Positions 20,776 through 40,749 of a stretch of 50,263 nt of DNA are shown in pieces. Under the pieces are notes generated by a model that saw only the letters and a list, made by a program, of their open reading frames with translations, did not search any database and had not been told where the DNA came from. Position numbers and translations under genes: made by a program. Origin of the DNA: an uncultured bacterium (GTDB lineage Bacteria; Muiribacteriota; UBA6191; CAZXTJ01); the NCBI GenBank assembly GCA_964643655.1, contig CAZXTJ010000001.1:1-50263 (forward strand), given 5' to 3'. Numbering within the stretch: the first letter of the stretch is position 1; each line of letters opens with the position of its first letter.

Positions 20776-21702
20776 TTAAAGGTAAGAGAGAATAGCTGCA
20801 GTTCCGAGTAGTAATGCGACTTTTGTCCCACAGCCTTGCGTGCTCGTTTTAGATGGTTTGCTCTCTTCGATATCCATCCCTAAACTATTACCCAAAGCTA
20901 TCAAGTCAGTGTTTATATCTTCGACGGAGGCATATCTGCCAGCTGGTGTTTTCATTAGACAGCGGTTGACAATAGGATCCCAAAGTTCTGATATGCCCTC
21001 TCTGAGAGAAGAAATTGGCGGCGGTTGATAAGATACTATTTTTTCGATGACGTCGCCTAAAGCATTGGCACAGAAGGGGTTTTCGCCAGCAAGCAGTTCA
21101 TAGGCGATTATGCCCAAGGCAAAGATATCACTTCGTTCATCAGCGTCGTTGCCGAGCAAGACCTCTGGTGAAATATAGTTTGGCGTTCCCATCGTGATGC
21201 CCGTACCTGTCAGCGGTGCTTGTTCATGTGAGCGAGCAATGCCAAAGTCTGTGATGGCTATAGATGAGTCAAGGCGAATGAGAACATTCTCTGGTTTCAA
21301 GTCACGATGAATAATGCCAAGGGAGTGTATGTAGGTGAAAGCTGAACACAGTTGCCTCAATATGGCGACTACTCTTTTCTCCTCTTGAGCTCCTTTGTTA
21401 TGAACTAGATCTTCCAGACTCTGTTGAGGAAGTAGCTCCATAGCGTAATAACTTCGTTTTTCGTCCACTTTGCCAAAATGGTACATCTTCACAACGTTGG
21501 GATGGGAGAGCTGTGCACACAATTCGTATTCTCTTTGAAATCGTTCTCGGTACTCTTCAGAAATGGAACGTCTACCCTTGAGGATTTTGACTGCAACGTC
21601 ACGATTTTCTTTTTTGTCGTGGGCAAGAAATATGTTGGCCATGCCTCCACTGCCCAGCTCTTCACAGAGCTCAAACCGCTGGTCCAATATCGTTCCGACC
21701 AT
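20776..21702 (-). CDS. Tail-anchored Hanks-type Ser/Thr protein kinase
   Basis: 308 aa. Motifs GSGGMANIF, VAVKIL, HRDLKPEN, TDFG, GTPNYISPE. A single hydrophobic C-terminal segment (VALLLGTAAILSYL). Confidence 0.9.
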   Translation of the reverse strand: MVGTILDQRFELCEELGSGGMANIFLAHDKKENRDVAVKILKGRRSISEEYRERFQREYELCAQLSHPNVVKMYHFGKVDEKRSYYAMELLPQQSLEDLVHNKGAQEEKRVVAILRQLCSAFTYIHSLGIIHRDLKPENVLIRLDSSIAITDFGIARSHEQAPLTGTGITMGTPNYISPEVLLGNDADERSDIFALGIIAYELLAGENPFCANALGDVIEKIVSYQPPPISSLREGISELWDPIVNRCLMKTPAGRYASVEDINTDLIALGNSLGMDIEESKPSKTSTQGCGTKVALLLGTAAILSYL

Positions 21703-25077: not shown

Positions 25078-28000
25078 GTGGGGCAGACGATGAGTCAGGA
25101 TAATAAACAACTGCAAAAGTACGACATTATCAAAGAATTGGGCCACGGTGGAATGGGGCGGGTCTACCAGGCTAAAGATACTGTCGATGACAAAATAGTA
25201 GCCATTAAAAAACTCACCTCTCGCCTCGTTGTATCTCCCAAAGCAGTATTGCTCATGCGAAACGAGTTTCGCACGATGACTCAGTTGAGTCATCCCAATG
25301 CAGTGCAGGTTTACGATTATGGCATTGATGAAGATGTTCCTTATTACGTAATGGAATACATTGAGGGACAGGATCTCAATGATGTGGACAATCCATCTGT
25401 TGAGCAGATTGTCGATGTATTGATTCAGCTGTGTCAGGTGCTCTCATATTTTCATTCACGTAACTTAGTGCACAGAGATTTGAAACCAGGCAACGTGAAA
25501 GTCCTGGCTGATGGCTCTATCAAAGTCATTGATTATGGTTTGATGACACAACTAGGTGTCCCTGCCTCTGGTCGGATTACGGGAACTTGCGAATATCTAG
25601 CTCCTGAAGCCATTTCAGGTGGCATTATTGATGAACGCACTGACCTGTATGCTCTCGGTATCTTGGCTTATGAAATGTTGACCGGCAAACTGCCTTTTAC
25701 GGGAACACGCTTAGAGGTCTTGCGCAGCCAACTGAAGACTATGCCAGCGCCCCCTCGCTCAATCAAGGCAGCCATTCCCGAAACTCTCAGCGACATCGTA
25801 ATGAAACTACTGGCCAAAGATCCGGAAGAACGGTATCGCGATGGAGCTTCTGTAATTGAGGACATGGCGCACTTGACGACTCGTGAGCGAAGTGTTGAGA
25901 CAACGACTCAGCAACAGTCTTATCTCTATTCCAGTCGAATGATTGGACGAGATGAAGAGCTTGCATTGGGAACAAAACTCTTAGAAGACGGCAAAGGCGC
26001 TCTGCTCGTTGGAGCTCCTGGTGGCGTGGGTAAAACACGCTATATGCTTACTATTCGCACACAGGCTCTCATTGAAAACTGGCGTTCTGTAAAGGTTGAT
26101 GTACACGGAACAGCCCACTTCCTTTATGGATGGGTCCGTCAGCTCTATCGCCAATTAGAAGGTCTCTCCAGTGATGAACTGACCAAAAAACATGGCGAGG
26201 TTTTCTCGAAACTAGGTAAATGCGCTGACGGTGAAGTCACTGGTGCACTCGTCAGCTGGATACGTGAGCTGGGTAAAGAAGGAAAACTGGTTGTCTTTTC
26301 AGACGATATGCAATGGGCAGATGGCAAAAGCCTGCAGATTTTTAATGAGCTCGTTCGTCAGCTGAACAAAGAGCCCATTATTTTTGTGACTGCATTTCGT
26401 AACAACGAAGTTGGTCCAACATCGCCTTTGTGGCAGACAACTGAGGAAGGTGTCAGTCAATATCTCGAATTGGGTCCCTTGACCAAACAGCAAACAGGCG
26501 ACCTCATGGAACATCTCCTATTCCCAAGCAAACCCTCTGACGACTTTCTCGAGCAGTCCTTCAAAGCTAGCGGAGGAAACGCATTCGACCTCATTGAGTT
26601 TTTGCGTTATTTGGTTGCCACGGGAAATCTCACGCGATCTGGCAGGAAGTGGGAAGAGCCTGTCTCATTGTCTACACTGGACTTGCCTGCTGAGCAGAGC
26701 GAACGAGTAATCGCCAGGATATGCAAATTGGGAGAGGCTTCTCGTAAACTTGCTTCTGCAGCTTCAGTACTTGGTGAACAATTGGATTTGGCTCGCTGGC
26801 AGACTGTCACTGGAGTGGACGAAAGTGCACTCTTCGATGGAATTGCAGACTTGCTCAAAAACCAAGTAATGGTCAAAGTTGAAGGAACCTATGACTTTGC
26901 CCACTTCAAGCTGAGCGAAACAATCTACGATAACGTCGAAACAGAAAACCGGGCCAAACTCCATGGTTTGGTTGCAGATGCAATTTGTTCTGATGATGAA
27001 AAGGGGCTTCTACCAGTCATTGCTCGCCATTATGTGGCTGCTGGCATTAAAGACAAGGCAGTCACATATTCACTGGACGCAGCTCGTGAAGCCGAAGGTA
27101 CACAGGCTGAATGGGCTGCTTTTGATCACTATCGTGAGGCAGCCAAAATCTTGGAGAAAGAGGAAAACAAAGAGACAGAGCTCATTGAGATCTACGAAAA
27201 GGCTGCGGCATTTAATAGTGCTGCCTGGATTGATGCGCCAACTTCTTTCTCTTGGCTCTCTTCGGCCATTGGATATCATCTGAAAAAAGGAAATCCAGAC
27301 AAAGTCTTTGGTCTTTCTCTTTCACACATCGTTGCTGCGGCAATTTCATCTAACTACTCTGTTGCCCGCGAGAAAATCGACGAGGTCGTGAAAGCAAACG
27401 ACATCAAAGAAGGCACCCTCACTTGGGCCATACTCTTTGGTGCAGGTGTCTGTCTCGTCGACTGGTACGAAGGAAAACTGCACGACTGTTTTGACCACGC
27501 CGTCAAAGCAATCAATCTCTTCGAAGAGAACTTGGAAGAGATGCCTGCCGACATGTGGGGTGCATATGCCTGGTCACTCTTCTGGCGTGACAAAGCTCGA
27601 GCTTATCTGGGCGAACCAGTAGTAATGCAAAACATACAGCGTATCCGTGAATTGACCATGGAAGGTAAATCAGACCTTACCATCTATTGGCACACTCTCA
27701 CTGCTGTAGGTGCTCGTGCTGCATTTTCAGGTCGTTTTTGCGACGTTCAGCTATGGATGGATGAAGCGGCTCGCCTGTCGCGGAAGATGGGAAGAGTTTA
27801 TTGGTTCGAATGTTGGATTTCGCACTCCTATCTCTATGCAGCTCTGCACCGGGGAGAGTATGCGCAGATAGAACACCACATTGAAAGAGTTGCAGCCAGC
27901 CCTGATCCTTACCAAGTGCGTTTGGCACACTTGTTCCGCGGTCGATGGGATTTGGTCAATGAGCGTTATGAAGGTGCCATCGACCATCTAAACAAGTTCA

Positions 28001-28590
28001 TCGAGCTCGAGCAAAAGAGTCTCGACAACTCCTACTTGGAAGGACTCATCTACCTGGCCGATGCTCAGTTGCAGAAGGGCGATGGTGACAAAGCACTAGA
28101 GACAATCGAAAAAGGGAAAAAGGTTGCCTCTGGGGAGCTCTTTGGAACTCCACTACACTTGATGCAATTCCTCCACTTAGAAGCAAAACACAAAGTGTCC
28201 CTTGGCAAGAATGCAGAAGCCATCGAGATTCTTGCAGACTGCGTAGAACGTGCGAAAAAATTGGACAATCCAATTCAGGAGGCCTTTGCCTTGACGACCA
28301 TGGGTGGATTGCAGCGTGACGACGACAAAGATGAGGCTAGAACGAACTTGAGCAAAGCTCGTTCAATCTTTTTGGCTCTGAACAACAAACATCAGGCAGG
28401 AGTCGTGGCCAACTTGTTGGAACCACTCTCAAAAGTCGAGGTCAAGGAAGAGGAAACACCTGATAGTGTGAAAATGATGAGAACCACAGAAGTCGAGACA
28501 GCTGACGCGATTACTCTCTTCGACGAAGTCTTCGAGGCAGAAGAAGAGAAACCAGATGAGCGAAGGGATACGGAAGACGACTCTCTATGA
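25078..28590 (+). CDS. Ser/Thr protein kinase fused to a STAND/AAA NTPase and a TPR-like helical region
   Basis: 1170 aa. Motifs GHGGMGRVY, VAIKKL, HRDLKPGN, IDYG, APE. Walker A GAPGGVGKT and Walker B LVVFSDDMQWAD. The long helical C-terminus has TPR-like repeats. The start is GTG 25078 or ATG 25090. Confidence 0.85.
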   Translation: MGQTMSQDNKQLQKYDIIKELGHGGMGRVYQAKDTVDDKIVAIKKLTSRLVVSPKAVLLMRNEFRTMTQLSHPNAVQVYDYGIDEDVPYYVMEYIEGQDLNDVDNPSVEQIVDVLIQLCQVLSYFHSRNLVHRDLKPGNVKVLADGSIKVIDYGLMTQLGVPASGRITGTCEYLAPEAISGGIIDERTDLYALGILAYEMLTGKLPFTGTRLEVLRSQLKTMPAPPRSIKAAIPETLSDIVMKLLAKDPEERYRDGASVIEDMAHLTTRERSVETTTQQQSYLYSSRMIGRDEELALGTKLLEDGKGALLVGAPGGVGKTRYMLTIRTQALIENWRSVKVDVHGTAHFLYGWVRQLYRQLEGLSSDELTKKHGEVFSKLGKCADGEVTGALVSWIRELGKEGKLVVFSDDMQWADGKSLQIFNELVRQLNKEPIIFVTAFRNNEVGPTSPLWQTTEEGVSQYLELGPLTKQQTGDLMEHLLFPSKPSDDFLEQSFKASGGNAFDLIEFLRYLVATGNLTRSGRKWEEPVSLSTLDLPAEQSERVIARICKLGEASRKLASAASVLGEQLDLARWQTVTGVDESALFDGIADLLKNQVMVKVEGTYDFAHFKLSETIYDNVETENRAKLHGLVADAICSDDEKGLLPVIARHYVAAGIKDKAVTYSLDAAREAEGTQAEWAAFDHYREAAKILEKEENKETELIEIYEKAAAFNSAAWIDAPTSFSWLSSAIGYHLKKGNPDKVFGLSLSHIVAAAISSNYSVAREKIDEVVKANDIKEGTLTWAILFGAGVCLVDWYEGKLHDCFDHAVKAINLFEENLEEMPADMWGAYAWSLFWRDKARAYLGEPVVMQNIQRIRELTMEGKSDLTIYWHTLTAVGARAAFSGRFCDVQLWMDEAARLSRKMGRVYWFECWISHSYLYAALHRGEYAQIEHHIERVAASPDPYQVRLAHLFRGRWDLVNERYEGAIDHLNKFIELEQKSLDNSYLEGLIYLADAQLQKGDGDKALETIEKGKKVASGELFGTPLHLMQFLHLEAKHKVSLGKNAEAIEILADCVERAKKLDNPIQEAFALTTMGGLQRDDDKDEARTNLSKARSIFLALNNKHQAGVVANLLEPLSKVEVKEEETPDSVKMMRTTEVETADAITLFDEVFEAEEEKPDERRDTEDDSL

Positions 28591-30974
28591 AGTTACTCGT
28601 CGAGATTGACGGCAACAGAATTGTCAGGCAAATAGAACTGACCAAATCTCGTTACACCTTGGGCCGAGATGCTGAGTGTGACATTGTCTTTGAAACGGGC
28701 AAAGTTTCTCGTCAGCATGCTGAACTAGTTCTGCGTGGCGATGCTTATTCTATCAGCGATAACTCGTCGAGAAATCATGTCTATGTCAACGGAGAGCAAG
28801 TAAAAGAAAGAAGACTCACATCTGGAGATGTGATCAATATCTCCCGAAAGGTCTCTTTGCTTTTTATTGCCGAAAGCGACACGGGCAATGCAGTCAATCG
28901 TATGGTGGATAAGCTTTGGGACGTGGTCAATAAAAAGGACTTGTTACGCCTGAAAGAAGTTACAGGGCGTATCAGTGCTTTGGAGAAACTAGACACCATC
29001 CTCCATGTCGTCTTGCGTGAGGCAATCAGGTTTGTTGGTGCAGAACGAGGTTTCATCGCTTTGACTGACGCTTCGGGACAACTCAGTGCAAACGCCTTCG
29101 TTACACAGGCCATGCCTTTTGACGACGAACAGGGATTTCGTCAGTTTGTCTCCAGTTCTGCTGTAGAAAGAGTCATATCATCTCGTGAGCCAGTAATTAT
29201 CGAGAACACGAGTGACATAAGCGCAGAATCGGTAACCAGAAGTGTCCTGGAGTTGTCACTTGGTTCCATCCTCTGTTTTCCTCTGCTCTTCAATGATGTG
29301 TTGGTAGGTGTGTTGTATGTAGATTCACCACTGGCACTGAGTTTGGTTGCAGACATGGATCCTTTCTATTTCAGTATTCTGACTGACCAAGCTGCAATTG
29401 CCATCGAGAATGCGAAACTCTTCGAAAGACTGGAAGGAAAGGTTCAGGCAACTGAACATCGCTATCAGCAATTGGTTGACCTTTCGCCAGATGCAGTATT
29501 TTTGCAAGTAAATAAGAAGATAGTCTTTGCCAATCCTGCTGCCCTGCAGTTGTTGAAGGCTAACTCCATTTCTCAGGTAGTAGGTCTCGAGGTCGATAAG
29601 CTATTCGTTGGTGAAAATGCTGAAGAGGTCAATGCTTGCCTCGTGGGGCGGGCTGACTGCTCTTATTACACCTATTTGCAGCGTACGGATCAAAGTACAG
29701 TCGAAGTTGAGTTGTTATCCAAGGCGGTGGTTTTTAATGCTGAGCCTAGTGTGCTGATTATTGCACGTGACATCACGAGGCGACGTCTCATTGAGCGAGA
29801 GATGTTAAAAGCACAGAAATTGGATTCAATTTCCACTTTGGCTGGTGGATTGGCCCATGACTTCAATAACTTGCTCACGGCTGTAATGGGGAACATTGCC
29901 GTTGCTGCCTTGAAACTCAAAGAAGGTAAAGTCAAGGAGGTAGGTTCAATTCTTGGAAAATCTGAGCTAGCCTGTTTTCAAGCTCAAGATTTGACACACC
30001 AACTGCTTACCTTTGCTCGCGGTGGTGAACCCATTCGTGAAGCTGTTTCAATGAGGGATTTGCTAGAGGACACTATTCCATTCGTTCTTCGAGGAACGAA
30101 GGTAAAGTGTACTTTGGATTTACCCAAAGATCAGTTGGTAGCAGAAGTAGATAAAGGCCAATTAGTTCAGGTCCTCAACAACATAGCCATCAATGCCGTA
30201 CAAGCCATGCCTGTTGGTGGTAACTTCACAGTTACAGCGAAAAGCACCAAGGTCGCTGGCGACAATCCCTTGAGTTTGTCTGCCGGAGAGTATGTTCACA
30301 TTTCTCTAGCTGATGAAGGGGCAGGTATTCCCAAGCAGTTTCTTACCAAAATTTTCGATCCCTACTTTACGACGAAACAGCAAGGAAGCGGTTTGGGACT
30401 GGCCACTGCCTACTCCATCATGAAACGTCACGATGGTTCTGTCTCAGCAGAGTCTTCGGCCGATGGCACTACCTTTCATCTTTACCTACCTGCTTCCGAC
30501 GAGATAATCCCAGAGAAAAAGGAAGTTGCCGTTTCTTACTCTTTTGAAGGTGGGAGAGTCTTGGTAATGGATGATGAACCTTCTGTCATTGAGGTAGCTA
30601 CGGCGATGCTGACAGTAATGGGATTCCAAGTAGATCCTGCCGCTGATGGTGAAGAGGCATTGAAACGCTACAGGAAAGCCAAGGAAGAGGGAGAACCTTA
30701 TCTCGCCGTAATCATGGATTTGACCATTCCTGGTGGAATGGGCGGAGCAGAGACAATCAAAGAACTGCTCAAGTATGATCCGAAGGCCCGTGCCATTGTA
30801 TCTAGTGGTTATTCAAACGATGCAGTCATGGCCAACTACAAGAGTCACGGTTTTGTCGGTGTCATGGAGAAACCCTACAATCTTTCGCGTTTGACTGTCG
30901 TACTCCAAAGAGCCTTGAGTGAAGAAAAAAAAGAGCCTGCACTAGGTGCAGGCGATCTAATAAATAATGCCTAA
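28587..30974 (+). CDS. Hybrid sensor histidine kinase: FHA-GAF-PAS-HisKA-HATPase-receiver
   Basis: 795 aa. The ATG overlaps the upstream TGA (ATGA). FHA (LGRDAECDIVF, SRQH). GAF (ERGFIALTD...VLYVDSP). PAS-like segment. H-box GGLAHDFNNLL. G-boxes DEGAGIP and GSGLGLA. Receiver (VLVMDDEP...VIMDLTIPG). Confidence 0.9.
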   Translation: MKLLVEIDGNRIVRQIELTKSRYTLGRDAECDIVFETGKVSRQHAELVLRGDAYSISDNSSRNHVYVNGEQVKERRLTSGDVINISRKVSLLFIAESDTGNAVNRMVDKLWDVVNKKDLLRLKEVTGRISALEKLDTILHVVLREAIRFVGAERGFIALTDASGQLSANAFVTQAMPFDDEQGFRQFVSSSAVERVISSREPVIIENTSDISAESVTRSVLELSLGSILCFPLLFNDVLVGVLYVDSPLALSLVADMDPFYFSILTDQAAIAIENAKLFERLEGKVQATEHRYQQLVDLSPDAVFLQVNKKIVFANPAALQLLKANSISQVVGLEVDKLFVGENAEEVNACLVGRADCSYYTYLQRTDQSTVEVELLSKAVVFNAEPSVLIIARDITRRRLIEREMLKAQKLDSISTLAGGLAHDFNNLLTAVMGNIAVAALKLKEGKVKEVGSILGKSELACFQAQDLTHQLLTFARGGEPIREAVSMRDLLEDTIPFVLRGTKVKCTLDLPKDQLVAEVDKGQLVQVLNNIAINAVQAMPVGGNFTVTAKSTKVAGDNPLSLSAGEYVHISLADEGAGIPKQFLTKIFDPYFTTKQQGSGLGLATAYSIMKRHDGSVSAESSADGTTFHLYLPASDEIIPEKKEVAVSYSFEGGRVLVMDDEPSVIEVATAMLTVMGFQVDPAADGEEALKRYRKAKEEGEPYLAVIMDLTIPGGMGGAETIKELLKYDPKARAIVSSGYSNDAVMANYKSHGFVGVMEKPYNLSRLTVVLQRALSEEKKEPALGAGDLINNA

Positions 30975-31170
30975 TAGGCGGTGGGTTGCGTTCGATTAAC
31001 ACAATGAAAATTTTGTGCCATTTTTTACATACACTATTCATCAGGGTTTACACGTCTGGGGAATAACATATGCCACAAAATAGGGCATGGGGTGTTACAC
31101 AACGGTGCAACAGGACATCAGACTCGTAGTAAAGTTGAAGCAACAGTAAAAACTCAAAAATGGAGTGAAC

Positions 31171-32379
31171 ATGTCAATGTTAGAGAGCTTGCCCATATTC
31201 AAGGGCTTGAACGAAACAACCTTGGGCAAAATTGATGATGCCTTGGACACTCGAACTTACGGGGACAATGTCGTCCTCTTCAATCAAGGTGATCCATCAG
31301 ATGCCTTTTATATCATTCAATCAGGTGGAGTTCGTGTTGTTTGTCAAACAGCCGGCGCTGAAAGAGAATTGGCTGTTTTAGGTGAAGGCGACTTTTTTGG
31401 TGAAATGGGTGTCATTGACAATGCCGCCCGTTCAGCAGCGTGCATAACTCAGGGTGATACAACATTGCTGGTCATTGAAAAAGACAACTTCTTACGAATG
31501 ATGGCCACCAATCCATCCATTTCTCGCCATGTCATGTCGGCTGTTGTCAAACGTACACAAGGTGGTTTGGCTGGTGTTCCTTCAGGGAGCGCACCTGATA
31601 AAGGTACCATTGTCGGTCTCTTTTCTGCCTCTGGTGGTGTGGGTACGACCTTCATTGCAGCTAACGTTGCTGGTGCCCTCAAAGCGTTAACAGGGAAGAA
31701 GATTCTCGTTGTTGATTTGGATTTGATGTTTGGTGATCAGGGAGTGATGTTTGATATAAAACCTGAACGCTCCATAGAGGATTTTGTTGGAGATCCCGAA
31801 GTTGACGAAGAGAAGCTACTGAAGACTGTAATGTCCACCAAGTCAGGCGTTTCTCTTCTGCAAGCACCTTCTCGTCCTGAAACAGCTGAAGCCCTCGAAG
31901 GTGGAATAATCATCACCATATTGGAGATGCTTCGTAACCATTTTGATTACATCATTTGTGACACCGCCCATGTCGTACAGGAATTCAATATCCATGTACT
32001 GGAACTCGTGCAGATACCAATCTATGTACTCACTCCAGACTTTTTCGGCTTGAAGAACTGCTCACGTTGGTACGATTTGATGAAAAAGATCCGTTTCCCT
32101 GTTAGTCGCATTGAGTTCCTCATTAATAAAGTGGAAGAAGAGGCTGATGATCACAGTGTGGAGTGGTTGGAAGAGAGATTTAATAAAAAACCAATCTCGC
32201 TTATTCCTTTTGACATGAAATGTGCAAAAGAATCCATCGATCATGGCGAACTCGTTGTCATAGATAGCCCTGATAGTGAGCTTTCAAATGGGCTAGAGCG
32301 GGTGGCCTGCGCCATTGCTGGAATTGAAGTACCAGAGGAAGAAGAGGATTCTTGGTGGAGCAAGTGGATACCACTATAG
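31171..32379 (+). CDS. Cyclic-nucleotide-binding domain fused to a TadZ/CpaE/ParA-like P-loop domain
   Basis: cNMP domain (FKGL...GDFFGEMGVIDNAARSAA). The MinD/ParA-like fold reads VGLFSASGGVGTTFIAANVA...ILVVDLDLMFGD, and the Walker A has no lysine. ATG 31171 follows GGAG (the track gives GTG 31165). Confidence 0.75.
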   Translation: MSMLESLPIFKGLNETTLGKIDDALDTRTYGDNVVLFNQGDPSDAFYIIQSGGVRVVCQTAGAERELAVLGEGDFFGEMGVIDNAARSAACITQGDTTLLVIEKDNFLRMMATNPSISRHVMSAVVKRTQGGLAGVPSGSAPDKGTIVGLFSASGGVGTTFIAANVAGALKALTGKKILVVDLDLMFGDQGVMFDIKPERSIEDFVGDPEVDEEKLLKTVMSTKSGVSLLQAPSRPETAEALEGGIIITILEMLRNHFDYIICDTAHVVQEFNIHVLELVQIPIYVLTPDFFGLKNCSRWYDLMKKIRFPVSRIEFLINKVEEEADDHSVEWLEERFNKKPISLIPFDMKCAKESIDHGELVVIDSPDSELSNGLERVACAIAGIEVPEEEEDSWWSKWIPL

Positions 32380-32874
32380 TCACTGCTTAGATGTTAGCTC
32401 GCCATAAAGTCCAGATAGCCAATTGCTTAACTGAGAGAGTTTACTTGCTTCTTGCACACGTACTCTTCTCTTTCTGGAGGCAACTTTTACACCCTTTTTG
32501 CCTAAATATGAGCGTAAAATAGCCTTTAGCTGGGCATCTGTGGCTGGTTTTTTACACGATGACTTCAATTTAGCCACCATTCGCTCGAGTTGTTCCTCGT
32601 TTATCTGCCTATTTCTGCGAATTTGTCTCGATTTTTGGGGTTTGTGTTGGTTTAGCCCTGCAGGATCGAAGATCCGATCATAACGATGCTCTACGTTCTT
32701 AACAGCTTTACGAAGTTCTCTCTGCAGGGCAGAGACCTTTTTCTTCTCAGCTTTGTCACCTTCTTTGGGTGTAATGCTGTTGATGAGATTGTCTAAAAAG
32801 CCCAAATCAGTTTGTGCAACACATTGTGCAGGCCAAATGGTTAGAAGCAGAGAAAAAGCAAGCAATCGCAACAT
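32380..32874 (-). CDS. Small basic secreted protein of unknown function
   Basis: I prefer ATG 32874, which has GGGGG 6 nt upstream. It gives the signal peptide MLRLLAFSLLLTIWPAQCVA/Q followed by a Lys/Arg-rich 140 aa. The alternative start at 33006 abuts the upstream stop but adds a Cys/Phe-rich 44 aa. That extension spans a hairpin and a sigma-54-like site. Confidence 0.55.
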   Translation of the reverse strand: MLRLLAFSLLLTIWPAQCVAQTDLGFLDNLINSITPKEGDKAEKKKVSALQRELRKAVKNVEHRYDRIFDPAGLNQHKPQKSRQIRRNRQINEEQLERMVAKLKSSCKKPATDAQLKAILRSYLGKKGVKVASRKRRVRVQEASKLSQLSNWLSGLYGELTSKQ

Positions 32875-32925: not shown

Positions 32926-32943
32926 TCCCTGAAAAAGCCTAAA

Positions 32944-32973
32944 ACAGAGACATTTCTTGAAAAACGTCTCTGT
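32944..32973 (-). terminator. Hairpin with T-rich tail downstream of the GspE-like ATPase gene
   Basis: ACAGAGAC-N14-GTCTCTGT is a perfect 8-bp stem. On the minus strand it is followed by TTTAGGCTTTTTC. It starts 34 nt after the stop at 33007. The loop is long for an intrinsic terminator. Confidence 0.4.
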
Positions 32974-33006
32974 TTTATAGTTTTCCGCAGCAGCGGAATG
33001 CTCCAT

Positions 33007-34554
33007 TTATTGAGGAGGCATGAGGTATGAAGACAAAGAACGAACGATTTCGCCAGGTGATGTCAAACCGGAAGAGAGTAATCTCAAGCCGTCTTGCCAA
33101 TAGGTTTTGAAACCATCTTCCTTGGCAGCTTCCATGAGAGCTTCATAACAAGCTTCTTTGGTCAGCTGTTTGGCCAATTTACCCGTCATTGGTAAAAACT
33201 CGTGAACAGCAACCCTTCCTTTGAAACCACCAGAACATTTGTCACAGCCCATTGGTAGATAAAGCTCTTCAGCTTTGAGTTCACATTCACTCTCGAGTAG
33301 TTCCTGAGCCATTTCTAAATCTGCATGTTCAGACAATTCACTCATGGCTTTTCTGCAATGTAGGCAGAGTTTACGCACTAGACGCTGCCCAATTATGGCC
33401 TGTAAACCATCTGCCAATACAGGAGCTTTGAGACCAACTTCCAGCAGACGTAACAAAGAACCAATGGCATCTTTGCCATGTATAGAAGTGAATACTTTGT
33501 GGCCTGCCAAGGCAGATTGTAAAAGGATCTCCGCTGTCTCAAAATCTCGTATCTCGCCAGCGCAAATGACATCTGGATCAGAACGAAGAGCCGCCGAGAG
33601 ACCTTTACGAAAGGTTAGACCAATGGAGATGTTCACAGGCAATTGTTGAATTCCAGGAAGGCACAACTCAACGGGATCTTCGATGGAGAAAACTTTCTTT
33701 TCAGGTGCTGAAGTCTCTGCCAAAAGGGAGTACAAAGTGGTGGTTTTCCCAGAACCTGTCGGTCCTGAGACGACGACCATTCCGTGAGGATGGTGGGCAA
33801 TTCTTTTTACTGACTGCAGCACTTCATCACTCTGGAAGATGACGTCCAAAGAAGGAATGTCTGCCAAAGTCCATCTTGGGAGCAGTCTTATCGTTGCTGA
33901 TTCACCAGTCATCAAGGGCACTACGCAGAGGCGCATTGTCAATGGGCCACCTTCGGGAGTGAGCCTTGCTCGTCCATCTTGGGGAAGTCTGTGTTCAGCA
34001 GGATCACATTTGAACATGTATTTGGCTGCAGCCAACAGTTGCTGCAGCTCATCCTTTGATAGCTCTTGATGATGGGTGAGCAATCCATCAACACGAAATC
34101 GAATGGCCCCTCCATCAAGGGTCGAGTCGAAATGGATGTCACTTGCTCCTTTTTCTGCACCGAGTAAACACAGTTTCACAAGCCAAGCCAGTCCACTGGG
34201 TTCGAAAGAAAGAGCAGTAGATTTTCCTTTGTTCTCATTGGGTTCGAGCAGTCCTTCAGACACTCTGTCTGCTATCTGAGGTAAGAGTACGTCGAGATTT
34301 CCTTGTCGTTCTCCTGCTGCAATCATTTCTATTGTCAGTGGATTGAAAAGAGTGTCATGTTTGGCCAAGAGAGCGGATAGATTTTGTCCCTCTCTCAGTC
34401 CTTCAGAGAGCAATGCTGGAATTTCTGTATAGGGTTCAACAAGAGGATCTTGTGCGAAACTATCGAGGGCGTCAGCCAAGGGTACGCCAGCACCTATGAG
34501 GGCCCCCAGTTTTTTGAAGAACATTGAAACGGTCTTTCTGTTGGACATTTCCAT
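33007..34554 (-). CDS. GspE/PilB-family secretion ATPase with an N-terminal GspF/PilC-like cytoplasmic domain
   Basis: 515 aa. Residues ~10-95 (FFKKLGALIGAGVPLADALDSF...GQNLSALLAKHDTLFNPLTIEMIAAGERQGNLDVLLPQIADRV) fit the T2SS-F domain pattern. The core shows GASDIHF, LPQDGR, Walker A SGPTGSGKTTT, Asp box SIEDPVE, Walker B DPDVICAGEIRD, His box TSIHG, and tetracysteine CLHC...CDKC. Confidence 0.85.
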   Translation of the reverse strand: MEMSNRKTVSMFFKKLGALIGAGVPLADALDSFAQDPLVEPYTEIPALLSEGLREGQNLSALLAKHDTLFNPLTIEMIAAGERQGNLDVLLPQIADRVSEGLLEPNENKGKSTALSFEPSGLAWLVKLCLLGAEKGASDIHFDSTLDGGAIRFRVDGLLTHHQELSKDELQQLLAAAKYMFKCDPAEHRLPQDGRARLTPEGGPLTMRLCVVPLMTGESATIRLLPRWTLADIPSLDVIFQSDEVLQSVKRIAHHPHGMVVVSGPTGSGKTTTLYSLLAETSAPEKKVFSIEDPVELCLPGIQQLPVNISIGLTFRKGLSAALRSDPDVICAGEIRDFETAEILLQSALAGHKVFTSIHGKDAIGSLLRLLEVGLKAPVLADGLQAIIGQRLVRKLCLHCRKAMSELSEHADLEMAQELLESECELKAEELYLPMGCDKCSGGFKGRVAVHEFLPMTGKLAKQLTKEACYEALMEAAKEDGFKTYWQDGLRLLSSGLTSPGEIVRSLSSYLMPPQ

Positions 34555-34575: not shown

Positions 34576-35022
34576 CTACTTCATAGAGTGAACACAGGCG
34601 GCGAGGGCCCTTCGTCTCGCCTGTGCTTCTTCCTCTTCAATCCACTTCAGCAAACTCTCGCGCCTTATACGCATGTGTTCACCAAAATAGAAAAAAGGTA
34701 ACTGCTGACTCATCTCATAAACAGTAGCCACTGGAAGCTTGAGAAAGGTGGCTACATCTTCTGGGGTGAGAATGTCGTCTGCAGGCAATGTGTTGCCATA
34801 GATATTTGAATGAATCTTGTTCAGAACGTTAGAGAGCACTTCAGTGGAGGTATTCTCAGTCTTCCACTCATCTATCACTTCGTCCAGTTTTTCTAGTTGT
34901 GCACAACAATAGCTACAGTCAGCGCATGTCTCTAAATGCGAACGGAGGGAAAGACTCTCTTGGTCATCGAGCTCAGCTGCTAAAAATGCTGAAAGCTTGT
35001 CTTGCACTTCTTTGCAGTTCAC
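34576..35022 (-). CDS. Anti-sigma factor (zf-HC2) fused to an excisionase/MerR-type HTH, with no TM segment
   Basis: 148 aa. N-terminal CKEVQDKLSAFL...HLETCADC is Hx3Cx2C. The C-terminal LTPEDVATFLKLPVATVYEMSQQLPFFYFGEHMRIRRESLLKWIE fits the HTH_17 pattern. 1-nt overlap with the ECF sigma gene. Confidence 0.7.
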   Translation of the reverse strand: MNCKEVQDKLSAFLAAELDDQESLSLRSHLETCADCSYCCAQLEKLDEVIDEWKTENTSTEVLSNVLNKIHSNIYGNTLPADDILTPEDVATFLKLPVATVYEMSQQLPFFYFGEHMRIRRESLLKWIEEEEAQARRRALAACVHSMK

Positions 35023-35606
35023 TATTTCTGTCCTTTCGCTATGGTGGAAGAGTTGTTTCCCAGAAAATCACTCAAGCTGCGTGCGAGCTGTGCACGTGCG
35101 CGATGTAGATGTGTTTTGACGGTGCCCAAAGGTAACTCGAGAGCAGCTGCAATCTCTTCGTAGGAAAGCTCCTCCACCTGTCGTAAGACAAAAACAGCTC
35201 GCTGCTTATTCGGTAGAGTCTTCATTGCTTTGTTCAGGGCAACTTTGCCCTCTGCCAATTCCAGAACACTAGCAGGGCAGCCGCTTCTTGATTTGTTCTC
35301 TGTACTGCCTTTGATTACACGCAGATGAGGATGTCGCTTTTTCCTGTCGAGGGCATTCAAGCAAGTGTTGGTAGCAACCCTATACAACCAAGTAGAGAAT
35401 TTGGCTGTCGCTTTGTAATTTGGAGCTGCTTTGGCCACACGTATGAAAATCTCTTGGACCAGATCTTCAACTTCCACTTCTTGGCCTGCCGTCATTTTTC
35501 TTACATAACCAAAGAGTCTATTGGCATGGCGGTGGTATAACTCGTCAAAGGCGTCACGTCGCCCACGGCCAAAAAGAAGCATTAGTTGTTCATCAGAGAA
35601 GACCAT
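35022..35606 (-). CDS. ECF-type RNA polymerase sigma factor
   Basis: 194 aa. Region 2 (DAFDELYHRHANRLFGYV...DLVQEIFIRV...FSTWLYRVATN). Region 4 (LPNKQRAVFVLRQVEELSYEEIAAALELPLGTVKTHLHRAR). Confidence 0.9.
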   Translation of the reverse strand: MVFSDEQLMLLFGRGRRDAFDELYHRHANRLFGYVRKMTAGQEVEVEDLVQEIFIRVAKAAPNYKATAKFSTWLYRVATNTCLNALDRKKRHPHLRVIKGSTENKSRSGCPASVLELAEGKVALNKAMKTLPNKQRAVFVLRQVEELSYEEIAAALELPLGTVKTHLHRARAQLARSLSDFLGNNSSTIAKGQK

Positions 35607-35705
35607 TTGTCACCTTCCTGTACCATTGAACCAAGAAAGATGACTTTTGTTTCAAATTATTTTCTCTCTAGACACAATTTGTTTCCAGAAGTACTCTCGT
35701 AACTG

Positions 35706-36644
35706 ATGAACAGAATGAAATGTACTCGCTGTCGTGCTTATGCCGACTTTGCTCATGAGAGTCACAATGCCAAATATTGTGCTCCTTGTTTTAAGCACCA
35801 TTTTCTTCGCCAAACACAAAAAGCCATCGATGAACACGAAATGTTTTCACCGAAGGATAGAATTCTCGTGGCAGTATCTGGTGGCAAAGACAGCTTGGGT
35901 CTGTGGGCTGCCTTGTTACATCTAAAGTATGAGGTCGACGGCATATTCATTGATCTTGGTTTTGACGAAGTGTCTGCGAGGGCACAAAAGAGCTGTCAGG
36001 TCTTTGCTGACTATCATGGCCAAAACCTATACGTATTCTCTCTCGTCGATGAAGTTGGTAAAACTGTAGTGGAGTTGAAACGAGGTAGTGGCAAACCGAC
36101 CTGCGCCGTTTGTGGCTTAATCAAAAGGTACATCATCAACGGCGTTGCCAAAGCAGGTGCTTATGATTGTGTGACTACGGGACACAACCTTGATGACGAA
36201 ACCGCCAAACTATTGAGCAATGTCTTACGTTGGCGAGAACACCATTTGGCTCATCAAAGCCCCTTGTTGGCTGAACGTGACGGATTTGTGAGAAAAGCAA
36301 AACCCTTTTACCGTCTCGACCAAGAGGAGATACGCTATTGGAACAGATTGGAAGAGATTTCTTTCTATGCAGCCAAATGTCCCCACAGCAAAGGTGCAAC
36401 TTTGGATTATCACAATGAAGCACTGAGTTTGTTGGAAGAGAGAATGCCTGGAATTAAGCGAAACTTCCTCTACGGTTTCTTTTCAGGCGGACAGAAAGTG
36501 GTCCAAGGGGAAGAGAAAGAATCTCTTACCTGTCACAGTTGCGGCGAGACTTCAGTGAGCAACCTTTGTGTCTTCTGTCGTCTTTTGGCTGGAAAAGGGA
36601 AAAAGCCAGATTTTGCAAAATGGTGGAACAAGGTCAGTCTTTGA
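35706..36644 (+). CDS. PP-loop ATPase, TtuA/Ncs6-type tRNA 2-thiolation enzyme
   Basis: 312 aa. N-terminal Zn finger CTRC...CAPC. PP-loop VAVSGGKDS. Fe-S ligand candidates CAVC plus KCPHS. C-terminal Zn finger CHSC...CVFC. Confidence 0.75.
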   Translation: MNRMKCTRCRAYADFAHESHNAKYCAPCFKHHFLRQTQKAIDEHEMFSPKDRILVAVSGGKDSLGLWAALLHLKYEVDGIFIDLGFDEVSARAQKSCQVFADYHGQNLYVFSLVDEVGKTVVELKRGSGKPTCAVCGLIKRYIINGVAKAGAYDCVTTGHNLDDETAKLLSNVLRWREHHLAHQSPLLAERDGFVRKAKPFYRLDQEEIRYWNRLEEISFYAAKCPHSKGATLDYHNEALSLLEERMPGIKRNFLYGFFSGGQKVVQGEEKESLTCHSCGETSVSNLCVFCRLLAGKGKKPDFAKWWNKVSL

Positions 36645-37281
36645 TTACGCCCTGAATGATAATACGTTCACCTGTATTGGAAGCGTGAACAGTATCCAAA
36701 CCAGAGAGTACTTTTGAAGGAAATGCTTCTGGTTTGAGAATGAAACGGAAGGCTCTCTTCTGGCCAAAGATCGTTCCAATAGTTCCCAAGACAGGCACAA
36801 ATCCTTTTGTTTCCACTTCAAGGAAATCTGTCACCTTTTTACTCTTCACAAAAATGCCGAGCACCTGCAACAAGATGGATTTGGCAAACTTGAGGGAAAT
36901 GTCTTTACCCAAGTTGTTACCAGCATCTTGCAGTTGCATTTTATCGATGAGGAAATCGAAACGGTTGGGAGCAGCAAGGACGATGTTGCCGTTGAGAGAA
37001 AACTGAACGCGGCCCAAAGCTTTGGTTTTGACAATGCCTTTAAGCTCGACGGATTTATCTTCTGCCATTGAAACAGCGATTTGCTCCAGTGGACCATCAG
37101 TCATTTGCTGGCGTTTGACTACCATCTTGCCAAAGATTACGAACAATTTGTTCAAGCCACTTCTCGTCACTTCGATGGAGTAATCATATTGGCCGAGCGG
37201 TGTTCGGCTCATATCTGGATTAGCAGCTGCTGAAGAGACAGCAAAAGCTAAAACTAAGATGATGAATAAGCTGTTTTTCAT
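36634..37281 (-). CDS. Secreted protein of unknown function
   Basis: 215 aa. Signal peptide MKNSLFIILVLAFAVSSAAA. Beta-rich composition. 4-nt overlap with the upstream gene. Confidence 0.65.
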   Translation of the reverse strand: MKNSLFIILVLAFAVSSAAANPDMSRTPLGQYDYSIEVTRSGLNKLFVIFGKMVVKRQQMTDGPLEQIAVSMAEDKSVELKGIVKTKALGRVQFSLNGNIVLAAPNRFDFLIDKMQLQDAGNNLGKDISLKFAKSILLQVLGIFVKSKKVTDFLEVETKGFVPVLGTIGTIFGQKRAFRFILKPEAFPSKVLSGLDTVHASNTGERIIIQGVIKD

Positions 37282-38015
37282 AGTGCCTGCTCCGAAAAAC
37301 TCAAAAAGAGTTGGACCATACCATCACGAACACCAACGTGGCGAACGTCTACCTGTGGGAAAAGAGGAGAAAGTACATTTGGCAGTATACAAATCACGAC
37401 TTTGTTCTCTTCGATGTACATGACTTCGTCAACTCGGACGTCTCTCTTTTCTCCGAGCTTTTTACCAATGTCCTCTGTAATCTTTTCGAGCTTTTCCGAG
37501 GCTGCTCGCTCAATGCCAGGAGCAAGGAAGTCCAGAACTGCTCCGATGGGTTTGGGATCTTCTCTTTCCGATTTAAAGACCTCGACACCATTCAATTTGA
37601 CATTGGCTTCAATGATGTCAAAAACGACGTCTTTGGAGTTTTCAGCAGAGAGAGCACAACAGATTTTGAATTCAAAGTCTGCCGCTTTGGTCTGTTTAGA
37701 GGCTGGATTGTGGAAAACACCTTCTACACATGCAACTCCTTGTTCACCAAAGGAGATTGACATCGATTTGAGTTTTTTCCCAGAGGGACTGGGTTTTGCC
37801 TTTTTCAACCCAATGGATAAGAGCCGATTAACGAGTCTATCACTGGCCGATACGACGAGGTCGAAGTCCGTTGGAACTGAGGATCTGTCATCTGAGGTGA
37901 TGAAGCGGGAAGCGCCACCGGGAATCATGTTCAAGTCATCTGCATTGGGCGTTTGTGCGCTCAACAGACCTGGGAAAACCAATAAAGTGACTATTATGGC
38001 CAATATGTGTCTCAT
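37278..38015 (-). CDS. Secreted protein of unknown function
   Basis: I prefer ATG 38015, preceded by GGAGAG. It gives MRHILAIIVTLLVFPGLLSA/Q. The track start (TTG 38045) lies at the predicted transcription start of the sigma-54 promoter. Confidence 0.65.
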   Translation of the reverse strand: MRHILAIIVTLLVFPGLLSAQTPNADDLNMIPGGASRFITSDDRSSVPTDFDLVVSASDRLVNRLLSIGLKKAKPSPSGKKLKSMSISFGEQGVACVEGVFHNPASKQTKAADFEFKICCALSAENSKDVVFDIIEANVKLNGVEVFKSEREDPKPIGAVLDFLAPGIERAASEKLEKITEDIGKKLGEKRDVRVDEVMYIEENKVVICILPNVLSPLFPQVDVRHVGVRDGMVQLFLSFSEQAL

Positions 38016-38052
38016 TGTCTCTCCTAACTCAAAAATGGTCTGCAAATACTAT

Positions 38053-38068: not shown

Positions 38069-38389
38069 GTATGGCGTCAATTGGCCAATGTTGCCTGTAT
38101 TGCTTCTTAATAGTTCATTTGGGCGTGATAGGATCATCTTCTCCTTTTGCTCAGACCCATGAAAATGTGTCTCATTTCGAACACAGTGTATCTTTTCTGG
38201 TATCTCTGTAATTTGTTCACTTTTTGAACGATCGGACTGTTCACTCATTGACCATTTGGTTGGAATGAACATGACATCATGGCCAAAAGGACCCTGTTTA
38301 TGCGCTTTTGATGGCTATTTCGTGGGTACTGCAGAATTGGCGTGACTCTTGATTAGAAGACCTTGTCTCTTTTAATCGAAAGGTCATAT

Positions 38390-40024
38390 ATGAAACGCCT
38401 CATTTGCACATTTATCCTTCTCGCCCTCATCACCTCTCCACTAATGGCAACTAGAGCCACTGTCTCCTCTTCCCGAAGCTCCTTCCGCGCTTGTTATCTG
38501 ACTTCCAAAGACATGGCTACAAATCTGGCCATTCTCTACAAAGGTGCTCAGTTGGAACTCATCGAGCAAGCAAGCAATGGCCGCTGGCAAGTAAGAGTGA
38601 ATACCTCTTCAGAGTTGGTCGTTCCTTATGGTCGCGCCCAAGGCGAAATGACAGGCTGGATTGCTGAAAGGTTCGTCAAGAAGGAAGAGTCTGAAACAAC
38701 TCCCTCTTCAGAAGACAATGGTACCAATGGTGATGTTGATTTGTTGGGCCAGGTCAGCGACCCAAATGGCCAAAGCAATACCAATACAACTCCTGAGGCC
38801 ACTTCTACTGAAGGAGCTGGTGTTTATTACCTCTTCACTAGCGAAGGCAACGACTCTGAGTGGTTCGACTTTTTGGCTTCAAATGGACAACCAGCTGGCA
38901 AACCAAACAATGTGTGGCGTCTGATCAGAAAAGATATTCAGGCTACAGGCCATAAATGTGAAGGTGTTGCTGTCATTCGAGTTGCCAAACCAAGGGAAGT
39001 CATTGATGTCTTGGCCAAAGGCAAAATTCCCACTAATGGGCTCAGCCCGGTGCCTGTATATAGTCGTGTACCTATTCATGCACTTTCAGAGCTGCAGCCT
39101 TCTGAGAAAAAAATCATTGGTTATGGAATTGTTGCCCACTCTGGTTCAGAAGGCCCTTTGCTCAACTACGGCGCTTCGAGGAATGAAGAAACTGGAGCTC
39201 TCGTGGGCCTGCAGCTCAACTGGACTTTCTTTCGTGAAGATATGTTGAAGAGCGGGGAAAAGACTCTTGGGAAAAGACTGTTGGATAAAGCTCATATCCG
39301 CCTATTTGGTTGTAACTCAGGGCACTGTGGATATTGGAAAGGTCGCCCTTCAATCTGTCATCATTTGGCAGCTGTTTATCAGGAGAAGAATGCTGTTGTG
39401 TCTGGAAAGCTCGCTTCAGGCAGTCCAAATGCCAGTGGTAGTTGGGCCTCTTTTGGTCTCAATAGTGCCAAAATGGCCACAAGACTAACTCCTGGGAAAA
39501 AAGAATACAAACTTCTGATTAATCGCCCCAAGGCATATGACCGTTTTGAAGTACCTGCAAAAGATGATGAAGAACGAGAAGCTATCTTAGAGTATTACCG
39601 TAGCCGTGACATCACTGTACACAGTCGAGAAAATGGTGTTGCTGTCAGAGCCCCATCCTCTAAGTGGCTTACCCGTAAAACCAAGAAAGACAACCTCTTG
39701 AAAACAGTTGTCCTGGCTATGAGCTCTGGAGATGAAGCTGTGTTGGCAGAGGCGAAAGCCAAAATGCCTCATATGGCCAAGTTTTTCGACAACACTAGTC
39801 TGCAGAATGCTATCAACGAAGTGAAAACAGACAACGATGGCAACTTGGACATTGATGACGGCAGAATTTGGTTTCAAGTTTATTATTGGACACTCGAGAA
39901 AAAGCAACGCAAGTGGAAATGTGCCCTACGCAACTGTTATTGCCAAGATCAGCACATAACAGAAGATTGGAAAACAAAAAGCAAAGATTCTCGTCGCCGT
40001 GCAGTTGGAGTACACTCTGATTAA
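38390..40024 (+). CDS. Secreted protein with an SH3b-like N-domain and a DUF4347-like His/Cys region
   Basis: ATG 38390 gives the signal peptide MKRLICTFILLALITSPLMA. The segment GAQLELIEQASNGRWQVRV...GWIAERFV is SH3b-like. GIVAHSGSEGPLL ... IRLFGCNSG resembles the HG..G / LYGCN pattern of DUF4347. Confidence 0.5.
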   Translation: MKRLICTFILLALITSPLMATRATVSSSRSSFRACYLTSKDMATNLAILYKGAQLELIEQASNGRWQVRVNTSSELVVPYGRAQGEMTGWIAERFVKKEESETTPSSEDNGTNGDVDLLGQVSDPNGQSNTNTTPEATSTEGAGVYYLFTSEGNDSEWFDFLASNGQPAGKPNNVWRLIRKDIQATGHKCEGVAVIRVAKPREVIDVLAKGKIPTNGLSPVPVYSRVPIHALSELQPSEKKIIGYGIVAHSGSEGPLLNYGASRNEETGALVGLQLNWTFFREDMLKSGEKTLGKRLLDKAHIRLFGCNSGHCGYWKGRPSICHHLAAVYQEKNAVVSGKLASGSPNASGSWASFGLNSAKMATRLTPGKKEYKLLINRPKAYDRFEVPAKDDEEREAILEYYRSRDITVHSRENGVAVRAPSSKWLTRKTKKDNLLKTVVLAMSSGDEAVLAEAKAKMPHMAKFFDNTSLQNAINEVKTDNDGNLDIDDGRIWFQVYYWTLEKKQRKWKCALRNCYCQDQHITEDWKTKSKDSRRRAVGVHSD

Positions 40025-40749
40025 TGAGACTTTTATTAATCATTCTGTTATCTCTCTTCGCCTCTTCTGCTTTTGCCTCAGACTTGGCCATGGCGAGAAA
40101 TGCCGAGCGTGTTTTTCGTGAAGCAGAGGGATTGGCAGAGCAAGGCGTCCACCACGAGGCCATAGATGCCTATTACCGAGCCATATCCATGGCCAAAGAT
40201 TATCGGTATTATGTGGGCCTTGGCCATTCACAAAAAGCCATTAAACAAGAAAAACTGGCCTTTTTCTCTTTTCGCAACGCTCTCGAGCTTTTACCCAAAG
40301 AACATATTGAGCGCCCAGCCATATTAGTGCTAATCGTGACAACGGCTCTAAACCTTGGCAGAGTAAAGGACCTGAAGACATATCTTCCAGAGCTCGAAGA
40401 AGTTGAACCGACTTTGGCCAAACTGTCTCGCTATCGTCTTTACTGCTGGCAAGGAGCCAAAGCACTGAAGGAGAAGAGGTTCAAAGAGGCCTATCGATGG
40501 TTCAAGAGGGCTAGGCCCTACAATCTGAACGATGGGCAGGCCATTGGTGGCTGCTGCGAGGCTCTCCTAAAACTGAACAAGATTTATAAAAAAGAGCAAA
40601 AACATAAAAAACGGCTACATGTTCTTTTGTTGTATAGCCGTCTACGCCCTTCACAGACGCTGAATGAACGTATTAGTGAAGTCTTTCAGCAGGCTGGTCG
40701 TCCAAGACGTTATCTGCAGGCAATTCGAGAACTCCGAGCTAGGCCATAG
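40024..40749 (+). CDS. Secreted TPR-like repeat protein
   Basis: 241 aa. The ATG overlaps the upstream TAA. Signal peptide LLLIILLSLFASSAFA. Helical repeats (AIDAYYRAISMAKDY, AFFSFRNALELLP). Confidence 0.6.
   Translation: MRLLLIILLSLFASSAFASDLAMARNAERVFREAEGLAEQGVHHEAIDAYYRAISMAKDYRYYVGLGHSQKAIKQEKLAFFSFRNALELLPKEHIERPAILVLIVTTALNLGRVKDLKTYLPELEEVEPTLAKLSRYRLYCWQGAKALKEKRFKEAYRWFKRARPYNLNDGQAIGGCCEALLKLNKIYKKEQKHKKRLHVLLLYSRLRPSQTLNERISEVFQQAGRPRRYLQAIRELRARP

Follow-up and report, generated by a model that had tools for sequence, protein, structure and literature searches.

A GspE/PilB-type ATPase with a platform-type cytoplasmic domain at its N-terminus, encoded with an ECF sigma factor and anti-sigma factor in an uncultured bacterium

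The 50,263-nucleotide stretch of DNA analyzed here (the window), from contig CAZXTJ010000001.1 of assembly GCA_964643655.1 (uncultured bacterium, Muiribacteriota), carries on its reverse strand three consecutive genes, for an extracytoplasmic function (ECF) sigma factor (35022–35606), a soluble class-I anti-sigma factor (34576–35022) and a GspE/PilB-type ATPase (33007–34554) fused at its N-terminus to a cytoplasmic (Cyto) domain of the GspF/PilC platform type. The open reading frame (ORF) of the fusion ATPase starts with ATG, 8 nt downstream of an AAGGAA ribosome-binding site, and encodes 515 amino acids. In this protein the N1E anchoring domain is replaced by one GspF/PilC Cyto domain, which a linker of about 20 residues joins to an intact N2 and catalytic domain. 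The subfamily of GspE/PilB-type assembly ATPases to which it belongs is genuine, monophyletic and very rare.

Four parts can be distinguished along the polypeptide, all on the reverse strand. The Cyto domain (residues 1–100; 34255–34554) is a single GspF/PilC-type six-helix bundle, recognized by Pfam, NCBIfam, PDB sequence matches, AlphaFold2 (AF2) and Foldseek. It is followed by an acidic- and proline-rich linker (residues 101–121; 34192–34254), poorly conserved, with none of its 21 positions invariant and a low predicted local distance difference test score (pLDDT); by the N2 domain (residues 122–230; 33865–34191), delimited from AF2 secondary structure and containing helix alpha2 and the alpha2–beta4 loop (AAAKYMFKCDPAEHRLPQDGR); and by the catalytic C-terminal domain (residues 231–515; 33010–33864), with Walker A, Asp box, Walker B, His box and tetracysteine. 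Pfam assigns T2SSF (PF00482) to residues 12–100 (E = 4.6e-12; 46.4 bits against a gathering cutoff of 25.2) and T2SSE (PF00437) to residues 134–504 (E = 5e-92; 308.8 bits against 24.9). T2SSE_N (PF05157, the N1E domain), carried by nearly all canonical homologs among the matches listed, gives no Pfam match down to E ≤ 10. In NCBIfam, the N-terminus matches positions 61–154 of the 401-position GspF model, with HofC, PilC and XpsF matching the same region, and the C-terminal 380 residues match the GspE and PilB models at about half their curated cutoffs, below both the GspE equivalog TIGR02533 (331.9 against 630.25) and the PilB equivalog TIGR02538 (308.6 against 675.65). Because it scores below the equivalog cutoffs and is without N1E, the protein is a divergent member of the GspE/PilB superfamily and should not be filed as GspE or PilB. 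Nor is it a platform protein, since it has one Cyto repeat and no membrane segment. No transmembrane helix was found in it, the highest 19-residue Kyte–Doolittle mean being 1.37; across five family members this maximum ranges from 0.85 to 1.37, against 2.65–3.31 in two canonical GspF controls.

The N-terminal domain, compared by sequence only, matches solved or modeled PDB chains of Myxococcus PilC (both repeats), Dickeya OutF, Thermus PilC and Vibrio EpsF. Predicted alone by AF2, from a model built with its four closest relatives, it forms a confident six-helix bundle (pLDDT 90.9; predicted template modeling score 0.83). The top 12 Foldseek matches of this model in the PDB are all cytoplasmic domains of GspF, OutF, EpsF, PilC or TcpE, with template modeling (TM) scores of 0.70–0.80 (0.76–0.80 for OutF, EpsF and PilC) and root-mean-square deviations of 1.5–2.3 Å; SpoIIIAB (6BS9) comes next after the platform proteins, at TM 0.62–0.64, and beyond that lies noise. 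The Cyto hallmark GE..G.LD..L (E82, G85, L87, D88, L91) is invariant in eight of eight family members. The domain resembles both GspF/PilC Cyto repeats and leans to Cyto1: against a profile of it, the first repeat outscores the second in 48 of 57 canonical platform proteins (mean 13.5 bits). An exhaustive phmmer search with the N-domain found 9,336 relatives in 1.84 billion representatives. Nearly all of the 150 listed are platform proteins of about 400 amino acids with two matched stretches, and among these 150 only P0003 and P0004 (loci and protein clusters are cited by our own numbers) have the form seen here, about 510 amino acids long with a single T2SSF stretch at the N-terminus.

By its motifs, the ATPase part appears to be an intact assembly motor. 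Its nearest solved structures are Thermus PilF, Vibrio EpsE/GspE and Geobacter PilB, at 225–256 bits, against only about 90 bits for PilT retraction ATPases. The Walker A motif (SGPTGSGKTTT), the Asp box (EDPVE), Walker B and the His-box histidine are invariant in all eight members and align to Thermus PilF. So is the CxxC...CxxC zinc site (C397, C400, C437, C440), a tetracysteine site of the kind typical of assembly (extension) ATPases and not of retraction ATPases. The N2 domain aligns with those of Thermus PilF and Vibrio EpsE; within it, D184 and PQDG (residues 191–194) are invariant across the eight members, and the segment AAAK.MF.CDPAEHRLPQDG is conserved in the family. An earlier, sequence-only reading of the window had called the protein an unambiguous GspE/PilB-type ATPase with Walker A, Asp and His boxes and a tetracysteine motif, without the usual N1E domain and without GspF transmembrane helices, and each of these statements is borne out, as are the T2SSF/T2SSE/T2SSE_N search and the structural superposition that it had proposed as checks. 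Its assignment of the first 95 or so residues to the first GspF/PilC cytoplasmic domain stands insofar as the domain is a Cyto domain; Cyto1 is a reasonable but not an exclusive identification.

Relatives with this architecture are few. A first homolog search returned three with the same Pfam pair, at 46–67% identity. Three more, P0269, P0270 and P0272, came from a profile search, in which the next-best scores already belong to canonical T2SSE_N–T2SSE proteins. A further member, at 35% identity (T2SSF 39.1 bits), lies at locus L066, in a GTDB metagenome-assembled genome (MAG) of the candidate division CSSED10-310 (JAFGEQ01). The architecture is common to seven protein clusters and L066, at 33–67% identity, in sequences from ENA, NCBI, JGI and Logan assemblies, and L092 holds a frameshift-fragmented copy; the family amounts to about eight clusters among 5.8 billion. 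A metagenome scan with a clade-A N-domain pattern gave only canonical GspF/PilC among the matches listed, and it missed the JGI contig of P0004 itself, so that it is uninformative on rarity. In a neighbor-joining tree that covers only the ATPase region, in 378 columns and with 83 canonical comparators, all eight fusion proteins group in one clade in 193 of 200 bootstraps, within which each of two sub-clades is recovered in 200 of 200. Kimura distances from fusion to canonical ATPases are about 1.1, against 0.63 among canonical ATPases, and both sub-clades are long-branched. For the tree taken alone, long-branch attraction cannot be dismissed as a source of this monophyly; it is also backed by the shared N-domain and the shared gene context, which agree with the tree.

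That gene context, a sigma/anti-sigma operon of which the sequence-only reading said nothing, is the most informative fact about the ATPase. The sigma factor (194 amino acids) has regions 2 and 4 only (Pfam Sigma70_r2, Sigma70_r4_2 and Sigma70_ECF) and scores 117 bits against a cutoff of 42.9 for NCBIfam TIGR02937, sigma70-ECF. The anti-sigma factor (148 amino acids) combines an N-terminal zf-HC2 domain (37.5 bits; cutoff 22.2) with a C-terminal excisionase-type helix-turn-helix (HTH) domain, HTH_17 (36.8 bits, also above cutoff), and in NCBIfam an excisionase domain is accompanied by a weak RsrA-like match. Pfam finds no sensor domain in it besides the HTH. The HxxxCxxC motif is present in five of five anti-sigma orthologs, and none of the five has a membrane helix, the top hydropathy mean of the window protein being 0.92. 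The anti-sigma start overlaps the sigma stop by one base in the window, and in most loci the ATPase gene overlaps or directly adjoins the anti-sigma gene. The order sigma, anti-sigma, fusion ATPase is found in the window, L001–L006, L066, L089–L091, L092 and L093, and holds in every locus with readable upstream sequence, which L094 alone does not have; in L087 and L088, both short contigs, the ATPase gene is directly preceded by the part of the HTH gene that encodes the C-terminus. Pairwise identities of sigma, anti-sigma and ATPase agree on ((window, L001), (L089, (L066, L093))), and since the three proteins give the same relationships the module appears to have been inherited as a unit.

About 20 nt before the sigma start lies TGAAAC-N17-GTTCAAT (35625–35654, reverse strand), found at the same position in L001 and L002; the clade B loci L066, L089, L092 and L093 have a variant, TGTAAC-N18-GTTTTAC, upstream of sigma. 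An AAC core in the -35 element is typical of ECF promoters, and from this core, together with position and conservation, we infer that the motif is an ECF-type promoter. Its core pattern occurs once in the whole window, at the operon itself. These observations strongly suggest that the ATPase is the third cistron of an autoregulated and co-inherited operon, after the ECF sigma factor and the zinc-finger anti-sigma factor with its HTH tail. A possible, leaky operon end is a 17-bp hairpin with a T-run, 30 nt past the ATPase stop (32940–32977, reverse strand), in which only four of the 17 pairs are G-C, making it weak as an intrinsic terminator. Two observations on individual loci may be added. 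On the 199-kb contig L092, sigma, anti-sigma and ATPase (8463–11179) are each split into two ORFs, which looks like either decay of this copy or indel errors of a long-read assembly. In one sub-lineage, a gene for a 67-amino-acid YgaP-like membrane protein directly precedes sigma (L092, 8105–8308; L093, 390–593).

No platform gene accompanies the module in the sequences searched. Among all stop-to-stop ORFs of the window with 80 amino acids or more, hmmsearch found no other that is T2SSF-like. Together with Pfam scans of 41 ORFs of at least 120 amino acids, a set covering the non-nested ORFs of gene size, this leaves the 50 kb without a platform or secretin gene, as the sequence-only reading had held for the adjacent genes. 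There is likewise no major pilin or prepilin peptidase gene in the window, no T2SSF-like ORF in L066, L001 or L002 by hmmsearch, and no platform, pilin or secretin family in the precomputed Pfam calls of L089 and L092. The canonical comparison loci were by-catch of a scan of genome contigs dominated by the Walker A pattern, in which L066 was the one true member among the matches listed; in them, the next gene downstream of the ATPase is generally a platform gene encoding about 400 amino acids with two T2SSF repeats. Simple read-through between neighboring gspE and gspF was considered as the origin of the fusion and rejected on this ground, as it would place the Cyto domain after the ATPase, and here the Cyto domain comes first.

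Directly after the ATPase gene, on the same strand, is a gene for a Lys/Arg-rich small protein with a signal peptide (32380–32874; 164 amino acids from Met45 of a 208-amino-acid ORF). It matches no Pfam family, is 42% identical to the product of the post-ATPase gene in L001 and L002 and is absent from L066, L089 and L094; being confined to this sub-lineage, it is an accessory and not part of the core module. Met45 is its probable start, as the upstream part of the ORF overlaps the 17-bp hairpin and is not conserved in L001. Convergent with the operon, a cyclic-nucleotide-binding domain is fused to a MinD/ParA-type ATPase (31165–32379, forward strand); this gene is kept beside the operon in L001 (8732–9940) and L003, is absent from the clade B loci, and its nucleotide-binding domain gives weak PADLOC matches to Pycsar-type effectors that probably reflect only that shared domain. 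PADLOC otherwise gave no meaningful match, and the module is thus not a known defense system. Rfam and tRNA scans of the window were empty. On the other side of the operon are four genes without a significant Pfam family (36634–38045, reverse strand; 38363–40749, forward strand), encoding putative secreted proteins of 215 and 255 amino acids, a 553-amino-acid protein and a 241-amino-acid protein with a sub-threshold TPR, in the same order in L001 (368–4545).

Genes for eukaryote-like signaling proteins are unusually abundant in the window, with four Ser/Thr kinases (61–2160, 4637–6979, 20776–21702 and 25078–28590), of which one has ankyrin repeats and another, of 1170 amino acids (25078–28590, forward strand), has Pfam AAA_16 and TPR domains and is a possible input to the module. 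The non-kinase tail of the latter is homologous (E about 1e-25) to a kinase encoded directly upstream of sigma in L089–L091, and Pkinase–AAA_16–TPR proteins of about 1200 amino acids are encoded near the module in L089 (5162–8860), L090, L091, L092 (4270–7725) and L066 (134–3841). This hints at a kinase input to the ECF system; chance association is also possible in kinase-rich genomes such as this one, with four kinases in 50 kb. The window also encodes two tandem FHA-GAF sigma-54 activators (7056–10800) and an FHA-GAF-PAS histidine kinase with a receiver domain (28587–30974). Farther away lie two paralogous triads of type-IV-pilin-like genes (12959–20775, forward strand, with 15925–16674 on the reverse strand). 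In each triad, two small proteins with pilin-type N-termini (181/221 and 139/198 amino acids) come after a large protein with one hydrophobic helix at the N-terminus; the two large proteins (595 and 537 amino acids) are 25% identical over the first 200 residues (E = 6e-10). Three of the four small proteins match Pfam N_methyl, the 139-amino-acid one being the exception; a signal peptidase II gene and three unannotated ORFs lie between the triads. Near one end of the window, glgC (glucose-1-phosphate adenylyltransferase; 47820–49166, reverse strand) is interrupted by a single in-frame TAA (48555–48557) that separates halves of 203 and 238 amino acids in the same frame, reflecting a nonsense mutation or a sequencing error.

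The fusion ATPase shares with GspE/EpsE and PilB/PilF the N2 and catalytic domains, the Walker A and B motifs, the Asp and His boxes and the tetracysteine site. It differs in having a platform Cyto domain where these proteins have N1E/T2SSE_N, in its equivalog scores and long branch, and in not being encoded beside gspF or pilC; N1E is the domain that anchors GspE to GspL. With Cyto1 of GspF, PilC and TcpE (OutF 5NBG, EpsF 3C1Q/2VMB, PilC 2WHN, TcpE 4HHX) it shares the six-helix bundle and the GE..G.L hallmark, but where those proteins have two Cyto domains and three membrane segments it has a single Cyto domain and no membrane segment, and it therefore cannot form a trimeric membrane channel such as that described for PulF (PMC10790770). 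The nearest analogy is SpoIIIAA/SpoIIIAB of Bacillus sporulation, a GspE-like ATPase and a partner with a single GspF-like Cyto domain; these are, however, two separate proteins that are not known to have such a sigma/anti-sigma operon context, and the SpoIIIAA model matches the fusion protein weakly (21.8 bits against a cutoff of 281). SpoIIIAB is also membrane-anchored. The N-terminus is a swappable regulatory or anchoring module in other members of the superfamily as well. MshE has a c-di-GMP-binding N-domain, and the PilB–PilZ–FimX complex (PMC8389850) is another such precedent. These N-domains are of T2SSE_N type or bind small regulators, and none is known to be a copy of a platform Cyto domain. 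On the side of transcriptional control, the RsrA/sigma-R type likewise consists of an ECF sigma factor and a soluble anti-sigma factor with HxxxCxxC; the anti-sigma factor of the present module has an extra excisionase-type HTH domain. ECF groups with conserved regulator or target neighbors have been described, for example ECF32 with type III secretion system genes (PMC7826278), and the words ATPase and pilus are absent from the main text of that re-classification, in which the neighborhood reported here is apparently not cataloged.

The sequence-only reading had not known the fused architecture as described, and we found no published description of a T2SSF/T2SSE fusion in the open-access literature, which is absence of evidence only; T2SSF, T2SSE and "fused" occur together in no paper found there, and nothing relevant was found on an ECF group with such an ATPase neighbor. 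The word "fusion" occurs only twice in Denise et al. (2019), neither time for an ATPase–platform fusion, and a 2026 survey of archaea reports no evidence of ATPase fusion or fission in that domain.

What a Cyto domain might do on its own motor is suggested by the PulE6:PulF3 model of Guilvout et al. (PMC10790770), in which six Cyto domains, three Cyto1 and three Cyto2, each bind one PulE N2. In that model the two repeats use one and the same interface, to which N2 contributes helix alpha2 and the alpha2–beta4 loop, and the conserved exposed patches of Cyto1 and Cyto2 are reported to be the N2-binding faces (PMC10790770). In the fusion protein, one Cyto domain is joined to each N2 by a flexible linker of about 20 residues, giving six to six per hexamer by architecture, and the family has conserved both presumed partner surfaces, the Cyto hallmark on one side and the alpha2/loop segment of N2 on the other. 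Each fused Cyto domain could thus sit on the Cyto-binding face of its own or a neighboring N2 in the same hexamer, which would reproduce the six-Cyto/six-N2 pairing of PulE6:PulF3 in one polypeptide. The motor would then carry its own soluble copy of the cytoplasmic ring of the platform; a membrane platform would not be needed and probably could not be engaged. In what is the most speculative step, the ATPase would act in the cytoplasm with the sigma/anti-sigma pair and polymerize no filament, either as a sensor or switch acting on the anti-sigma factor, with the HTH tail as the likely docking point, or as a dedicated output of the sigma factor. A cytoplasmic, sigma-linked role is favored because the only constant partners are the sigma factor and an anti-sigma factor that is soluble and has no extra domain but the HTH, and because the ATPase is strongly diverged; the long distances and sub-cutoff GspE/PilB scores suggest a shift of function. 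We hold this composite reading, a Cyto domain on its own N2 ring in a soluble, platform-independent ATPase tied to sigma/anti-sigma control, tentatively, as one with slightly less than an even chance of being correct.

Several points weigh against it. A zinc-finger anti-sigma factor such as RsrA is able to sense redox stress alone, and an extra sensor is not strictly required. The catalytic and zinc motifs are all retained, which is just as compatible with a real filament motor. A platform gene may lie elsewhere in the carrier genomes, its absence covering the window and the listed loci only, and the pseudopilin-like triads are 12–20 kb from the module in the window and about 6 kb from it in L001. 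The one-to-one pairing of Cyto and N2 is that of an AF2-multimer model, with no experimental structure (PMC10790770), and the full-length AF2 model of the fusion protein, from four sequences, reaches a pLDDT of 55.7, too poor to judge domain docking.

The same facts can be read as those of an alternative filament motor induced by the ECF system, made on release of the sigma factor and docking on a canonical type II secretion or type IV pilus platform encoded elsewhere; the fused Cyto domain would then replace the N1E–GspL anchor, either pairing with platform Cyto domains or filling vacant ring positions. The intact assembly-motor motifs, zinc site included, and the closeness to PilF, EpsE and PilB instead of PilT speak for such a motor, two pseudopilin-like triads lie near the module in the window and L001, and isolated Cyto1 domains crystallize as dimers, so that self-association is possible (PMC10790770). 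Yet in the loci searched the family members have no gene for a platform protein, a secretin, a prepilin peptidase or a major pilin nearby. Being tethered in cis, the fused Cyto domain would be a strong competitor of platform Cyto domains for N2, and the pseudopilin link is limited to two closely related loci, the pseudopilin cluster of the window being without the sigma promoter motif. We consider docking of this kind a substantial possibility, albeit on the unlikely side. A stress-induced decoy or brake, which would form mixed hexamers with canonical GspE/PilB or cap their N2 domains and so stop assembly or secretion while the ECF sigma factor is active, appears improbable. Six platform-like domains could mask N2 surfaces, expression seems to be under ECF control and the ATPase part is strongly diverged; but a decoy has no need of catalytic residues, which are nevertheless invariant across lineages only 33–36% identical, and there is no sign of co-assembly with canonical ATPases, to which the protein is only about 40% identical.

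That the gene is an artifact or dead, through chimeric assembly, a miscalled start that merges two genes, or decay into a pseudogene, might be suspected from the fragmented L092 relative and the in-frame stop in glgC of the window, and the sequence-only reading had named an assembly artifact at the junction as a concern. The reading frame, however, is continuous and has its own ribosome-binding site, the architecture has been assembled independently in at least eight data sets (among them ENA, NCBI, JGI and Logan assemblies and the CSSED10-310 MAG) with conserved domain boundaries and invariant motifs, and the fact that all three L092 genes are broken points to indel errors in that assembly. 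A junction artifact is excluded, and we regard this whole class of explanation as having a vanishingly small probability. The probability that remains is left for an explanation not yet imagined.

It has long been a question how GspE/PilB motors hold and drive the GspF/PilC platform, and this family provides a natural, soluble, single-chain sample of Cyto and N2 together, the kind of construct that one would design for cryo-electron microscopy or crystallography. That the fusion exists is also independent evolutionary support for a one-to-one relationship between Cyto and N2. Beyond the motor itself, its constant association with an ECF sigma factor and a soluble, HTH-tailed anti-sigma factor makes up an ECF neighborhood for which we found no description, and the family may show the reuse of a filament motor for gene regulation. 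The broader proposal, that the three-gene module is a previously unrecognized cytoplasmic ECF signaling system in which a type-IV-filament motor, freed from the membrane by acquiring its own copy of the platform Cyto domain, has been co-opted as an ATP-driven sensor or switch of the anti-sigma factor without assembling a filament, is in our judgment unlikely, though well short of negligible. If true, it would mean that a secretion motor has become a regulator of transcription, assembling no filament at all.

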